DNA of 39,458 bases from the IMG/VR virus record IMGVR_UViG_3300045988_159199; one strand, given 5' to 3'. A program made the translations under genes and the position numbers. Each line of letters starts with the position of its first letter. Position 1 is the first letter of the stretch. The notes below the pieces were generated by a model. It saw only the letters and a list, made by a program, of their open reading frames with translations. It had not been told where the DNA came from and did no database searches. Below, piece by piece: positions 747 to 33,229 of the stretch. The stretch comes from a virus.

Positions 747-2024
747 TCAGTAGTAGATGCGCGTTCCCGCGCGGACCTGGTTGGGATTGCTGATGCCGTT
801 GGCTGCGGCGACCTTGGCGCTGTTGGCGCCGAAATGGTTCCACAGGCAATCACCGGCACCGATCACCACGTAGCGCCCCGCACCGGCGGAGGTGGAGGAT
901 GTCGTACCGGTGAGCCGCAATCGCTGGCCGGGGTAGATGACGTAGGGGGCACGCAAACCATTGAGGTTTGCGATGCTTACCCAGTTCACGCCGGTTCCGG
1001 CACCGATCAAGGTCAGATAATCGCCTCGTTGCACGGTGTACCAGCTTGCGCTGGTACTTGTACCGCCTCCCGTGCCACGCAAACGCTGGTTGACGATTGC
1101 CATGACCTCGCTGTAGCGGTTGCCGAGCAGTTGACGGCGTTGCGGGTCGTTGCTGTAGTCGCCGCGAATCACTGCGGTTGCCAAGGACTGTGCGTCACCG
1201 ACCGGCGCACCTTGCTGGGGTGTCGGGCTGGGCGTGGCCGGGTTGGCGGAGGTGCCGGGCTGAGAACCCGCGTACTTCGCCCATGTTCCGGCATCGCCAT
1301 AGAACCAGTTGACGTCGATCCTGGAACCGACGCCAGGCACGTGACCCGAGCTGGAATACTGCCAGGCGGCGGCGAATGGCCAAGGGCTGACGTCGTAGGG
1401 CACGGCTCCGGGGTTGCGCAGGGTCTCTCCGGTATATCCACGCGGATATCCGGCAACCCACAAACCGTAGTTGGCGTTGGCCACTGCGGTCCAGTCGGTC
1501 ATTTTGATGACACTGGCAGACGTGTAGATGAGAGGCTTGACGCCCCATGCGGATTCGACACGCTGCAACCACCTGAGCGCCCACCAGCTCCATGTCACGT
1601 AGCTGCCCGATGGCTCCCAGTCCAATACTGGAATCACACCATCGTTGACATAGCCGCGCGTTTGGCCGATAAACCAGTCAGCCTCGGCCTCAGGGCTGTT
1701 GCCGAGATCAGGCCGAGCAAAATGGTAGACGCCGCGACGGATGCCGTTGGCCTTGAGCGACTGCATTGTGCAGTCGGCAACCGAATCAGTGTACCCGTTG
1801 CCCTCAGTGACTTTCACGAAAGCGAAGTTGACACCGGATGCCTTGGCGGTTGCGGCCTGACTGCTGCCGACACATCCTTGCCATTTGCTCACGTCCATAC
1901 CGCTGTCGGCGAGCGCGGTGCCCGGCACGAACACCAGGGCGATGGTCGTCAGCAGTGTGGCCAGCATGGTTGCCCATGGTCGGCGGGGACGGGCGTGGCG
2001 TGGCTTTCCGCGATTAAATATCAT
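747..2024 (-). CDS. Endolysin: signal-like N-terminus, GH25 muramidase, Cpl-7-like repeat and two LysM domains
   Basis: ATG at 2024 is preceded by AAAGGAG. Motifs seen: RRPWATMLATLLTTIALVFVPGTALA, DVSKWQG..FAFVKVTEG, VIRGDYSNDPQRRQLLG, WYTVQRGDYLTLIG and YVVIGAGDCLW. The upstream part of ORF 747-2354 is Arg/Pro-rich junk. Confidence 0.9.
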   Translation of the reverse strand: MIFNRGKPRHARPRRPWATMLATLLTTIALVFVPGTALADSGMDVSKWQGCVGSSQAATAKASGVNFAFVKVTEGNGYTDSVADCTMQSLKANGIRRGVYHFARPDLGNSPEAEADWFIGQTRGYVNDGVIPVLDWEPSGSYVTWSWWALRWLQRVESAWGVKPLIYTSASVIKMTDWTAVANANYGLWVAGYPRGYTGETLRNPGAVPYDVSPWPFAAAWQYSSSGHVPGVGSRIDVNWFYGDAGTWAKYAGSQPGTSANPATPSPTPQQGAPVGDAQSLATAVIRGDYSNDPQRRQLLGNRYSEVMAIVNQRLRGTGGGTSTSASWYTVQRGDYLTLIGAGTGVNWVSIANLNGLRAPYVIYPGQRLRLTGTTSSTSAGAGRYVVIGAGDCLWNHFGANSAKVAAANGISNPNQVRAGTRIYY

Positions 2025-29748: not shown

Positions 29749-30198
29749 TTAATTGGTCCATGGGTCATTGGCTGGTGCCGTATATTCGCCGTATTCGCCG
29801 GACTGCGGCGGCTGCGGCGTCGCGTGTTGGCCTCGCTGGATGCGGGTGATGGCGGTGGTGGCGCGTTGCAGGCTTGGTCCGATGTCTTCGATGACCCAGC
29901 GTGTGGACCAGCCGGTGCCGCCGTCGCGTTTCTCGTACTTGCTGGTCTGTGGGCGTACCGTGGCCATGATCTGGTCTCCCTTGCCGAGCGATGCCACGAT
30001 GTGCTCGGCGAGTTCGCGCCATGCCTCGCACTGCCAGCTGGTGGGCGTGACATCGACCGGGTTGCCGGCCGTGTCCTTCTCCCAGCCGCTGGACAGGATG
30101 CGCAGGTTCACGACCGGTATCCCGTTGCCCGTGGTCCGGTATTCCGGGTCAGCGGCCAATCGGCCCCTGATGATCGAGATGCTTGGGTCTTTGGCCAA
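29749..30198 (-). CDS. ssb: Single-stranded DNA-binding protein
   Basis: The OB-fold pattern IIRGRLAADPEYRTTGNGIPVVNLRI..CEAWRELAEHIVASLGKGD is followed by a Gln/Pro-rich tail. Confidence 0.8.
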   Translation of the reverse strand: MAKDPSISIIRGRLAADPEYRTTGNGIPVVNLRILSSGWEKDTAGNPVDVTPTSWQCEAWRELAEHIVASLGKGDQIMATVRPQTSKYEKRDGGTGWSTRWVIEDIGPSLQRATTAITRIQRGQHATPQPPQSGEYGEYTAPANDPWTN

Positions 30199-30735: not shown

Positions 30736-30950
30736 TGCTGGTCCTCGCTTTCGGTGAGGTATGGTTCAAGTTTTTCCATCGCCCACGGGAGTGCGAGCAG
30801 TACGCCACTGGCGACGTAGACGGCGAGCGCGATGGTGTTGCCGATCGGGTGGGAGCAGCCTTCGTGGGTGAGCAGCCATGCGAGGGCGAGCAGCATGATG
30901 ACGGCGAGCGTGATGGTTTCACCGTTATGCTCTTGCTTTCGGGTTCGCAT
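30732..30950 (-). CDS. Small membrane protein (2 TM)
   Basis: ITLAVIMLLALAWLL and IALAVYVASGVLLALPW. The gene overlaps the upstream gene by 26 nt, so the start is uncertain. Confidence 0.55.
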   Translation of the reverse strand: MRTRKQEHNGETITLAVIMLLALAWLLTHEGCSHPIGNTIALAVYVASGVLLALPWAMEKLEPYLTESEDQQ

Positions 30951-31221
30951 CGATGGTCACCCCCTTGGGCAGATAGTCGGCGAGTGTGATGGATGGCAGG
31001 AATCCCGCGTCCGTTTTGGCGTCCATCAGGAGCGCTTTGCCGATCTGGTCGGCGGCGGCGCTGCTCATGCTTCGGACGAAGTCAGGTATGTCTTCGGCCA
31101 GTTGAAGGCTCAGAAGGCTGCTGCCCTGTTCTCCGGCACCGTCGAGGGTGACTCGCGCGATCGGCGCGGTCATGCCCCCGATGCTTACGGTGAAGTCGAA
31201 GATGATAGGTTGGCCACTCAT
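30925..31221 (-). CDS. Hypothetical protein
   Basis: ATG 31221 lies 7 nt after AAGGAGG. The product is 98 aa. A hand count puts about three quarters of codons ending in G or C. Confidence 0.7.
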   Translation of the reverse strand: MSGQPIIFDFTVSIGGMTAPIARVTLDGAGEQGSSLLSLQLAEDIPDFVRSMSSAAADQIGKALLMDAKTDAGFLPSITLADYLPKGVTIDANPKARA

Positions 31222-31262
31222 CACGCCACCTCCTTGGATGCTGTCACCGTAGAATCGTGCCT

Positions 31263-31910
31263 ATGGGTGGTCTGGTTTCCTTCTTGCAGTGGGTTTGGTC
31301 GGGTATCGGTGGTTTGGGTGGATTTGTCGGTCTGCTTGGCGGCGGTTGCGGCGTCTTCGCCTTGTTCCAGACGGGCAAGTCGAATCTGCTCGCGAAGAAG
31401 GCGAACCGTATTGCGCAGGAAGCCAACAGGATCGCCGCTGACGCGAAGGGGGTCGCCGAGGAGGCCAACCGTCTTGCCGGCAAGGCGAACGAGATAAGCG
31501 CAGACGCGAATGCGATCAGCCAGAGGGCGTTGAGCGTTACCGCGGATCAGACGGTCTACAAATGGCGGGGTGAATTCGATGGCGAATCGTCGACCGTCTT
31601 CCTGCTCAACGACTGCCCCCACGAAGCATCTGACGTTCACGTGTTCGTCCGTCACGAAGACCAGACCATCATGGACAGGATCGTCGATAAAGTACCCGCG
31701 TTCGGCGAGATCCCGCTCAAGGACGAGCTGTTCACGCAGAAGGTAGTCGAAGACCAGCGTTCCATCGACAGGCTCAACTCCAGTGCCGGGTTCGTCTACA
31801 TCGGGGTCGGCGGGTATGACGTCACCGTCCATGTCGCCTACACCACTGAGCTCGGGAGCAGACGCAGCAATACGATCAAGCATCGCCTGACCGACGGCCA
31901 ACGCCATTGA
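31263..31910 (+). CDS. Membrane-anchored coiled-coil protein, opposite strand to the early operon (candidate lysogen-expressed exclusion factor)
   Basis: TAGAAT at 31250-31255 ends 7 nt before ATG 31263, giving leaderless geometry. The protein has an N-terminal Gly-rich TM segment, AN(R/E)IA-type repeats and a beta-rich C-domain. Hand-counted GC3 is about 0.77 against about 0.61 for the overlapping minus ORF. Confidence 0.6.
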   Translation: MGGLVSFLQWVWSGIGGLGGFVGLLGGGCGVFALFQTGKSNLLAKKANRIAQEANRIAADAKGVAEEANRLAGKANEISADANAISQRALSVTADQTVYKWRGEFDGESSTVFLLNDCPHEASDVHVFVRHEDQTIMDRIVDKVPAFGEIPLKDELFTQKVVEDQRSIDRLNSSAGFVYIGVGGYDVTVHVAYTTELGSRRSNTIKHRLTDGQRH

Positions 31911-31924
31911 ATCCTTGCTGGACA

Positions 31925-32125
31925 TCATGCCACTCCTCCCAATGAGAGCAGGAAATTGAATACGAGGAACGTGATCACGACCATCACGATGACGAACACG
32001 ATGGGGTGATCATCCAAGAGGCGCATGAACAGAAGGAAGACAGCCACTAATACGGCAACGATTGTCAAGGCCACGACGAACACGGATGCCGTGAACGGCA
32101 ATGTTTCGATGTACTTCTCGACCAT
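31925..32125 (-). CDS. Small membrane protein (66 aa, 2 TM)
   Basis: MVEKYIETLPFTASVFVVALTIVAVLVAVFLLF...IVFVIVMVVITFLVFNFLL. Hand-counted GC3 is about 0.74 against 0.55 for the mirror frame. Confidence 0.65.
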   Translation of the reverse strand: MVEKYIETLPFTASVFVVALTIVAVLVAVFLLFMRLLDDHPIVFVIVMVVITFLVFNFLLSLGGVA

Positions 32126-32214
32126 CACATCTTCTTGTGGTCTGGGGTATCCCTTCGCCGGGCTAGATTGGAAAGCGCCAACCAAGCAACCAGCCCAACG
32201 AAGGGAAGAATGAA

Positions 32215-32487
32215 ATGGAGCCATTGGAAGAACGTTCGAGCAGTGAAACGGTCAGGGACGGGGAACGTCATACGCCATCGTGGTACGTTCACTTCAACGG
32301 ACATCGGCTCGGGCCGGTCTCCGATGCGAAGTTCAAGAAGATGGCGGACACTCTCATGTCCATCGTCAGAGAGGGAAAGCACCACGGGCTCGCGTTCACT
32401 CTTCCTGAGGATGGCCGTGATGTCTGCTGCATCTGGACTCCCGGCGTCCCGATCAGCTTCAAAGAGGCTGACAGTGAATCTGAATGA
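32215..32487 (+). CDS. Hypothetical 90-aa protein (strand assignment uncertain; alternative is minus ORF 32125-32493)
   Basis: AAGGGAAG lies about 9 nt upstream of ATG and TAGATT lies at 32164-32169. Codon choice is better than in the mirror frame (AAG/ATC/TGC against CTT/GAT/GCA). The C-terminal EDGRDVCCIWTPGVPISFKE resembles, from memory, small actinobacterial GR..IW..P..P..F proteins. Confidence 0.45.
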   Translation: MEPLEERSSSETVRDGERHTPSWYVHFNGHRLGPVSDAKFKKMADTLMSIVREGKHHGLAFTLPEDGRDVCCIWTPGVPISFKEADSESE

Positions 32488-32489
32488 CA

Positions 32490-32774
32490 TCACGCCATCT
32501 CGCTTTCGGCGAGCGCTGGAATGGTGTTTTCGGCGGTGTCGAGCTTCTCAGCCATGGCAATGATTGAGGACAGAGGACGATGCGTCACGCCCGCAATGCG
32601 GCGCAGCTCGTCAAAGTTAAAAACACCGACATTGATTTTGCGGTTTAACGTGTTCCGAGGAATTTCTGCCCGATCAGCGAGCATAACTTGTGTCATTCCT
32701 GACTCATTGAGGACCTGCTTTATTGCAATCCCTAAATGCCTGTTTTCAAGCAAATATTGTTTCATATGAGACAT
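32490..32774 (-). CDS. Cro-like XRE-family HTH regulator, first gene of the early (lytic-direction) operon
   Basis: GMTQVMLADRAEIPRNTLNRKIN is an HTH. The gene is divergent from its paralogue, and its first codons (ATGTCTCATATGAAAC) coincide with an operator-like repeat. Confidence 0.8.
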   Translation of the reverse strand: MSHMKQYLLENRHLGIAIKQVLNESGMTQVMLADRAEIPRNTLNRKINVGVFNFDELRRIAGVTHRPLSSIIAMAEKLDTAENTIPALAESEMA

Positions 32775-32864
32775 GATAAAACCAAGATTGCGCTCTTCAA
32801 AACACGGCGTGTCTCATATGAAACAAGAATGCTTCATATGTAAGTAAAATGTCTCACATGCCAA
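32759..32864. promoter_or_regulatory. Operator cluster of the genetic switch: four copies of TGTCTCAYATG(AAAC)-type sites
   Basis: 32759-32773 (gtttcatatgagaca) is the exact reverse complement of 32810-32824 (tgtctcatatgaaac). Weaker copies lie at 32831-32845 and 32850-32864. The region is AT-rich and only 74 bp are non-coding. Confidence 0.6.
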
Positions 32865-33229
32865 CAGGAAAGAAGACCGCGACGATTGAATCAAAGGCGC
32901 TTTCAATCGCAATCAAGAGAGCTATGGCCGTACGTGATTTCAAGACACGATCACTGGCTATCGAATCGGGAGTGCCTTATGGCACCCTCCGACGCATCCT
33001 TGAGCTCAATACAGTCGCCGACTATGAACAACTCAGGAAGATTGCGGGAGCATTGCGCATGCCGCTCTCTTCCATCATCGCCGACGCCGAGCACCTTACA
33101 AAAGACGCAGGGGTCATCGAAGATTACCAAGCTACCGATAACCGAGAAACTTCGAGTGACCATGAGAACATCGACATCGACGCATGGGCCGACCGGATCA
33201 AGGCCGAAGATTCCATACACAATAATTAG
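32849..33229 (+). CDS. CI-like XRE-family HTH repressor (no S24 peptidase domain)
   Basis: LAIESGVPYGTLRRILE is an HTH. It shares IAIK, LR.IAG and PLSSIIA.AE.L with the Cro-like paralogue. It is transcribed toward int and followed by a terminator. Confidence 0.75.
   Translation: MSHMPTGKKTATIESKALSIAIKRAMAVRDFKTRSLAIESGVPYGTLRRILELNTVADYEQLRKIAGALRMPLSSIIADAEHLTKDAGVIEDYQATDNRETSSDHENIDIDAWADRIKAEDSIHNN

Follow-up and report, generated by a model that had tools for sequence, protein, structure and literature searches.

Two long open reading frames (ORFs) occupy the same 0.7-kb segment, on opposite strands, of a Bifidobacterium prophage represented by the IMG/VR virus record IMGVR_UViG_3300045988_159199 (39,458 nt; the whole of this stretch is referred to below as the window). 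The minus-strand ORF (31221..31928) encodes 235 amino acids from an ATG, and the plus-strand ORF (31263..31910) encodes 215 amino acids from an ATG to a TGA at 31908-31910, or 217 if counted from the GTG at 31257; both lie where a preliminary description of this DNA had placed them. The plus ORF falls wholly within the minus ORF, with ~650 nt common to both, and the two are in mirror frames: codon boundaries coincide, codon position 2 is common, plus position 3 is minus position 1, and plus residue k uses the same codon as minus residue 223-k. The preliminary description had proposed that the plus ORF is a genuine gene antisense within the early operon and that the minus ORF is a mere shadow, adding as an aside that both strands might truly be used. 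The homologue family, conserved start geometry and architecture of the plus ORF bear out the first proposal, and the plus gene is almost certainly real. The second is contradicted by the conserved-length homologues of the minus ORF, its near-universal openness, its conserved ribosome-binding site and its own purifying selection. The aside appears to be the better-supported reading, and the segment is, on balance, probably a true, fully overlapping antisense gene pair.

A total of 87 related loci were fetched, which together with the window gave 88 loci and 71 distinct sequences; the labels L001-L095 denote the related loci compared, L092 being B. reuteri and L093 B. jacchi. Deep members comprise L088 (36% identity to the plus protein) and L091, L092, L093, L094, and L095 (30-35% to the minus protein), and the contigs L089 and L090 carry a called gene identical to that of L088. 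Genes from the same loci served as controls, including 12 with their mirror frames on which the statistics were calibrated. Codon counts were made on 17 representatives sharing <97% nucleotide identity, and substitutions were modelled on 35 phylogenetically independent pairs without ancestral reconstruction. These comparisons show that both mirror-frame ORFs are kept, each with its own start signals, across the Bifidobacterium prophage lineages examined.

Start signals of the two reading frames

The minus ORF is preceded by a Shine-Dalgarno (SD) sequence, GGGAGGAG (31933..31940, read from 31940 to 31933 on the minus strand), which was overlooked by the preliminary description. The upstream gene 31925-32224(-) contains this SD within its 3' end, and 4 nt separate the SD from the minus ATG. 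The TGA of that gene and this ATG (31928-31926) share bases as ATGA, and at the downstream junction (31219..31235, minus strand) the SD AAGGAGG (31235-31229) is followed by the minus TGA (31223-31221), which overlaps the GTG/ATG of the next gene (30925-31224) as TGATG. The fit of the minus ORF to the operon via these two junctions, as first described, is thus upheld, and the same downstream stop/start overlap is found in related loci. In 67 of 68 distinct loci, the minus ORF is headed by an in-frame ATG or GTG with a strong SD pentamer 4-16 nt ahead of it, as compared with 4 of 540 for the mirror frames of the 12 control genes. The signal occurs in at least eight upstream gene contexts, including an intergenic one in L001 (TAA-AGGAG-N8-ATG). 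No other observation speaks as strongly for translation of the minus ORF as this conservation of SD and start; translation of this frame is very probable, and its product is probably a functional protein.

On the other strand, a −10-like box, TAGAAT (31250..31255), stands 7 nt before the plus ATG at 31263 and is the predicted promoter of a leaderless mRNA. The leaderless-type geometry reported in the preliminary description is present in the window and conserved in relatives. TAGAAT-N7-ATG occurs once in the window, against 0.05 occurrences expected by chance, and a TANNNT box is found 6-7 nt before the plus start in 70/71 distinct sequences (TAGAAT in 68 and TAGATT in 2), the distance to the ATG being exactly 7 nt in 69/71 and 6 nt in one more. 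In the deep lineages L088, L091-L093, and L095, the corresponding site reads TAGGGT, TAGTAT or TAGAAT. Translated in the minus frame, the box gives differing residues (DST, NLP, QSN), which argues that the box is conserved as a DNA motif. Leaderless transcripts account for ~15% of transcription start sites in B. pseudolongum (PMC4782308). The sole exception is L086, where GGAGGAAGG and a GTG form a leadered start; near 3990-4010 in L086/L087, a 42%-identity lineage, this arrangement replaces the leaderless TAGAAT-N7-ATG at the plus gene.

Constraint acting on both frames

The plus frame was open in 71/71 distinct sequences and the minus frame in 70/71, and both were also open in L088 and L091-L095, down to 30-36% identity. 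The mirror frames of the 12 control genes were fully open in 0-69% of sequences; taking 0.3-0.5 per independent lineage, the openness of all 8-13 or more deep lineages corresponds to p below ~0.004. Among the 17 representatives, none of the 217 plus-frame Leu codons is CTA or TTA and one of the 198 plus-frame Ser codons is TCA; the corresponding counts in the minus frame are 0 of 401 and 0 of 181, whereas CTA and TTA represent 2.7-11% of Leu codons and TCA 9.7-16% of Ser codons in control genes of the window. Other rare plus codons (CTT, TTG) are enriched, so the avoidance is confined to stop-forming codons. Between 1.7 and 4.3 stops per sequence would be expected in the plus frame. The naive expectation of mirror stops was rejected as evidence since it overstates the case, 73 stop-creating differences being observed in the 12 controls against 181 expected (~2.5-fold too high), and was replaced by a control-calibrated version: for the target, 10.6 and 14.1 stop-creating differences were expected, or ~4.3 and 5.7 after calibration, and none was observed.

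The GC content at codon positions 1/2/3 is 0.73/0.43/0.61 in the minus frame and 0.60/0.43/0.76 in the plus frame, in agreement with the third-position values (GC3) of ~61% and ~77%, respectively, first counted by hand. Divergence at plus codon positions 1/2/3 was 0.30/0.19/0.34, the usual pattern being a position 3 far above position 1. GC3 and the simple ratio of nonsynonymous to synonymous change (dN/dS) were both discarded as strand deciders, as these position divergences are atypical and the ratio of nonsynonymous to synonymous proportions (pN/pS) by the Nei-Gojobori method (NG86) was <1 in both frames. The dN/dS check suggested in the preliminary description left the strand undecided. 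A naive Goldman-Yang (GY94) simulation was likewise set aside because it overstates the case. Instead, both frames were fitted jointly, the substitution rate being the product of kappa, of w_plus if the change is nonsynonymous in the plus frame, and of w_minus if it is nonsynonymous in the minus frame. Over the 35 pairs, this gave w_plus 0.31 (likelihood ratio, LR, 99) and w_minus 0.39 (LR 61), with rates ordered SS > SN ~ NS > NN (S, synonymous and N, nonsynonymous in each of the two frames); adding a position-2 term gave 0.40 (LR 35) and 0.50 (LR 20), respectively. Bona fide control genes from the same loci showed w_true of 0.08-0.25 and w_mirror of 0.57-1.8, so that w_minus is below all 11-12 control mirror frames. 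The NS/NN contrast (3.0-3.7) also exceeded every control (maximum 2.1). Mean pairwise amino-acid identity among the representatives was 0.633 for the plus and 0.577 for the minus protein, whereas divergence-matched controls showed a gap of 0.14-0.19 between true and mirror frames and no window in which the mirror frame was as conserved as the true one. Such windows numbered 10 of 27 in the target, some being more conserved in the minus than in the plus frame, and seven columns combine an invariant minus residue with a variable plus residue. Together, the target is at or beyond the control extreme in every test, by moderate margins.

Individual codons carry the same double footprint. Plus I78 is ATA in 16/16 representatives and the opposing minus Y145 is found in 17/17, being kept when the plus residue goes from Ile to Val; plus A122 is GCA in 17/17, giving minus C101. 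The plus codons CTT at L71 and TTG at L90 correspond to minus K152 and Q133, respectively, and AGA at R200 and GAT at D106 are fixed. At plus E53 and E163, GAA encodes minus F170 and F60, the latter kept through Glu-to-Lys changes, and other plus Glu columns are fixed as GAG, encoding minus Leu. Conversely, the minus frame is driven to rare GTT (six times), GGT and GAT codons, keeping plus Asn, Thr and Ile. Fixed rare codons make up 9/94 in the plus and 16/69 in the minus frame, as compared with 6/346 in divergence-matched controls. Codon usage is optimised for the plus frame, which suggests that the plus gene may be the older or dominant partner of the pair.

A separate segment in two of the loci may be another stretch constrained on both strands, or a chimera of frames: a ~150-aa ORF (MAGDDTIALAVGYD...) at 1039-1506(+) of L034 and 1010-1453(+) of L005 and its mirror frame both show omega of ~0.4-0.55 with high likelihood ratios.

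Predicted proteins and their homologues

The plus product was claimed in the preliminary description to combine a transmembrane (TM) helix, a repeat coiled coil and a beta-rich C-terminal domain, and all three are present. A charge-free hydrophobic segment (residues ~5-35; 31275-31367) forms the predicted TM anchor and is followed by an alanine-zipper-like coiled coil (residues 44-92; 31392-31538) of seven heptads, nearly perfect repeats of AxxANxI (AKKANRI, AQEANRI, AADAKGV, AEEANRL, AGKANEI, SADANAI, and SQRALSV), and by a predicted beta-sandwich domain (residues ~96-215; 31548-31907). The AN pattern is kept in remote homologues from Gordonia and Micrococcales, so that it can be assigned to the plus protein itself and not to a side effect of coding on the minus strand. 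An AlphaFold2 (AF2) model built on the plus alignment had a mean predicted local distance difference test score (pLDDT) of 62.8, with a long helix at residues 29-93 and a beta domain at residues 100-215 (pLDDT 70-86). The best Foldseek match of this domain is 8b7d (E 5.6e-5, probability 1.0), with TM-scores (template-modelling scores) of 0.27/0.36 and 12% identity; its neighbours are Ig-like, LEA-2 and TMEM106B-luminal beta-sandwiches, many generic Ig-like matches following 8b7d. No basic residue precedes the hydrophobic segment and four are found within the 14 residues after it, so that, by the positive-inside rule, the coiled-coil stalk and beta-sandwich probably face the cytoplasm. A lipoprotein reading of the N-terminus was rejected, as family members do not conserve the Cys of the hydrophobic segment and a basic n-region is lacking.

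Homologues of the plus product form 87 clusters, mainly of 207 aa and down to 36% identity. A profile search of 1.84 billion representatives retrieved 513 clusters at E ≤1e-3 (212 at ≤1e-10), nearly all of them full-length proteins of ~190-230 aa spread over the Actinomycetota, with NCBI gene calls in B. scardovii, Gordonia malaquae, Brevibacterium luteolum, Cutibacterium, Micrococcales, and Antiquaquibacter. Remote homologues include WP_336791808.1 (Gordonia malaquae), WP_420733146.1 (Brevibacterium luteolum), MCI9889114.1, WP_305001611.1 and BAQ32063.1 (B. scardovii). The plan of TM segment, AN heptads and beta domain is common to all the proteins retrieved, which define a broad, unnamed Actinomycetota family with a membrane anchor, a coiled coil and a beta-sandwich. 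In the lineage L088-L090, the usual stop of the plus gene is lost (L088, gene 1314-2081) and the frame continues for ~45 Arg-rich codons; DUF4160/DUF2442 and Peptidase_M78 genes then follow co-directionally, in what resembles an accessory or toxin-antitoxin-like slot.

The minus product is an acidic protein (isoelectric point 4.7) with a predicted alpha/beta core (residues 1-30 and 55-203) and a disordered tail. It has 48 homologue clusters of 200-250 aa down to 35% identity, or 54 down to 30% with a profile. At 196 aa, the minus ORF of L086/L087 is shorter, the disordered tail being absent. The AF2 model built on the minus alignment reached a mean pLDDT of 73.8 and a predicted TM-score of 0.69, with 73 residues ≥90; its alpha/beta core is compact, whereas a loop and the tail are disordered. 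Since the shared codons mirror covariation and helix/strand periodicity, this model is supportive and not decisive.

Searches of Pfam, PHROGs, NCBIfam, PADLOC and PDB sequences assigned neither protein to a family; PHROGs returned just two families of unknown function at E ~0.006-0.01, and the PADLOC defence models had no match to either protein. A search of 1,203 genomes likewise matched neither protein, a negative of no weight because 0.3-2.4 kb is masked in several of them and may include the homologous loci. The role in superinfection exclusion or defence proposed for the plus protein in the preliminary description is a conjecture. Conserved-length homologues were also expected there for the real ORF alone. 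Both frames have them, and homology thus does not decide the strand. Public annotation is split in the same way: NCBI records annotate the plus ORF for B. longum but the minus ORF for B. miconis, B. reuteri, and B. jacchi, and two annotations of a 152,589-bp B. animalis contig choose opposite strands, one giving the plus and the other the minus ORF (proteins P0080 and P0130). Gene calls across databases cover 87 clusters for the plus and ~54 for the minus frame.

Operon setting, interpretation and known systems

The minus ORF is the fourth gene of an early operon starting with a cro-like helix-turn-helix (HTH) gene (32490-32774, minus strand), and a repressor-like HTH gene (32849-33229, plus strand) lies in the same direction as the plus gene. 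A gene for a single-stranded DNA-binding protein is found at 29749-30198(-). In the window and L091-L095, the minus gene is second to fourth in the early operon behind the cro-like HTH gene, and repressor-side genes are found further on, co-directional with the plus gene. A second mirror-frame pair adjoins the first (window 32125-32530), with a 122-aa ORF at 32125-32493(-) and a 90-aa ORF at 32215-32487(+). The latter has a TAGATT at 32164-32169 and an SD-like GAAGGGAAG before its ATG at 32215, and a weak terminator-like hairpin comes after it at 32504-32521(+). This neighbouring pair has a single homologue among the fetched loci.

Under the interpretation preferred here, that of a true antisense gene pair, the minus gene would be translated from the early lytic operon mRNA via its own SD, coupled translationally to its neighbours through the ATGA and TGATG junctions, to give a soluble acidic alpha/beta protein. 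The plus gene would be transcribed as a leaderless mRNA from the TAGAAT box, against the early operon and toward the repressor gene at 32849-33229, and its product would be tethered to the membrane by the N-terminal helix, with stalk and beta-sandwich in the cytoplasm. As opposite strands of the same DNA would be used, their expression probably alternates, the plus gene being on in the lysogen and the minus gene after induction, this timing being conjectural. Plus-strand transcription may also interfere, as antisense, with the first part of the lytic operon, in the manner of lambda PRE or Fc02 pC1. In its fullest form, this model is a strand toggle: the lysogen would read the plus strand, giving a membrane-tethered protein and an antisense RNA against the lytic operon, and the induced phage the minus strand, giving an early protein, both proteins being functional and the pair having evolved together, codon for codon, from a time before the Bifidobacterium prophage lineages split. 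This fuller version is tentative, and somewhat doubtful as a whole.

Several observations weigh against the gene-pair interpretation. Codon usage of the minus frame is poor, with GC1 (0.73) above GC3 (0.61), and its composition is rich in Arg, Leu, Val, Gly and Asp, as is typical of antisense translations. Its AF2 model could partly echo the covariation and helix periodicity of the plus protein, and Foldseek found no structural neighbour for it in PDB or BFVD. No member of either family without the other frame was found among the loci compared at the DNA level, so that the minus family is known only together with the plus frame. The evolutionary margins are moderate: control mirror frames get down to w 0.57-0.65, the SS/SN contrast (1.8-2.2) is at the top of the control range (0.4-1.7) and not separated from it, synonymous diversity at conserved plus columns (0.27 overall) is control-like, and the calibrated pairwise stop test gives just p ~0.014 and 0.003.

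In the likeliest alternative, the plus product is the sole functional protein and the minus ORF is translated merely to keep ribosomes across a 0.7-kb antisense insert, avoiding Rho-type polarity and keeping downstream coupling, its amino-acid sequence being irrelevant. Such a role would explain why SD and start are conserved, why the ATGA/TGATG junctions exist and why stops are lacking, and fits the poor minus codon usage, the absence of a structural or family match and the moderate selection margins. It is nevertheless unlikely in view of a w_minus below that of all control mirror frames, the seven columns invariant in the minus and variable in the plus frame, the windows better conserved in the minus frame, the rare plus codons fixed in a way that keeps specific minus residues, and the confident, compact AF2 model of the minus protein.

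The original proposal, in which the plus gene is real and the minus ORF an untranslated shadow, open by chance and through the rarity of TTA, CTA and TCA at 60% GC, draws on the long mirror-frame shadow ORFs frequent elsewhere in the window, on control mirror frames that are open in up to 69% of sequences and on the GC3 bias toward the plus frame. However, the minus frame is open in 70/71 sequences and in at least 13 deep lineages, where 0.3-0.5 per lineage gives p below ~0.004; its strong SD and start recur in 67/68 loci against 4/540 in control mirror frames; and its w_minus of 0.39-0.50 is associated with LRs of 20-61, all of which render a shadow improbable. The converse, with the minus ORF as the sole protein, the plus ORF as the shadow and TAGAAT driving a non-coding antisense RNA that regulates the early operon, would suit the SD and coupling of the minus ORF and the higher AF2 confidence of its product. 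It is the least probable of these explanations and highly so, given the 513 clusters of the plus family over the Actinomycetota, with a conserved length of ~200 aa and NCBI calls in Gordonia, Brevibacterium, Micrococcales, and B. scardovii; a w_plus lower than w_minus; a plus GC3 above GC1; an ATG exactly 7 nt from the box in 69/71 sequences (6 nt in one more), with SD and GTG in L086; the beta-sandwich matches returned by Foldseek; and a plus frame open in 71/71 sequences where 1.7-4.3 stops per sequence are expected.

Whether bacteria and phages have long antisense overlapping genes (OLGs) is still under dispute, and such ORFs are discarded by annotation pipelines. If confirmed, the present pair would be unusually long and old (~650 nt shared, conserved to 30-35% identity), with partners that differ in their start mechanisms. 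Its host genus is abundant in the human gut and has a poorly understood lysis-lysogeny region. The pair suits clean genetic testing because each frame can be stopped by changes silent in the other.

The plus protein can be compared with two known groups of proteins. Lpp/OprI alanine-zipper lipoproteins (NF040598) likewise have small Ala residues at heptad core positions, and their profile weakly matches plus residues 44-84, scoring 15.8 bits against a cut-off of 43; unlike them, the plus protein has no conserved lipobox Cys, is anchored by an N-terminal TM segment and has a beta domain in addition. TMEM106B luminal and LEA-2 proteins, along with other Ig-like beta-sandwiches (PDB 8b7d, 1xo8), would resemble its predicted architecture in having a single-pass anchor followed by a seven-to-eight-strand beta-sandwich. 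However, TM-scores are just 0.27-0.36 at 12% identity, there is no Pfam LEA_2 match, and the topology of the plus protein is predicted to be cytoplasmic, not luminal or extracellular.

With respect to the transcriptional layout, the lambda PRE promoter lies inside the early rightward operon and is read antisense through cro into cI, and the antisense stretch encodes no protein. The predicted plus-strand promoter would similarly fire from within the early operon toward a repressor gene, antisense to the first early genes; unlike in lambda, the antisense stretch bears an ORF.

The closest precedents are olg1/gene 10 of Pseudomonas phage Fc02 and the long antisense OLGs of P. aeruginosa. In Fc02, olg1 overlaps the lytic-operon gene 10 in antisense (pC1-olg1-repc), and both strands give proteins, both of which exclude phages (PMC9936078). 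As in the present case, the phage is temperate, and a gene on the lysogen side, which precedes the repressor gene and runs in its direction, is antisense to a lytic gene just after a cro/ner-like gene. The proteins are unrelated, and olg1 differs in its size (~70 aa), short overlap and proteobacterial host, whereas here a whole 215-aa gene lies inside its partner and conservation extends to 30-35% identity. Expression and phenotype have been shown experimentally for Fc02, whereas the present pair is predicted from sequence. Antisense OLGs of 957 and 1536 nt have been described in P. aeruginosa (PMC8850804) and others in E. coli O157:H7 (PMC9927249, PMC5960689, PMC6294744). These are also long ORFs antisense inside another gene, with translation-signal and purifying-selection evidence on both frames; they are chromosomal, described as evolutionarily young and supported by ribosome profiling (Ribo-seq). 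The predicted Bifidobacterium pair differs from them in being prophage-borne and deeply conserved, and in pairing a predicted leaderless start on one strand with an SD-coupled start on the other.

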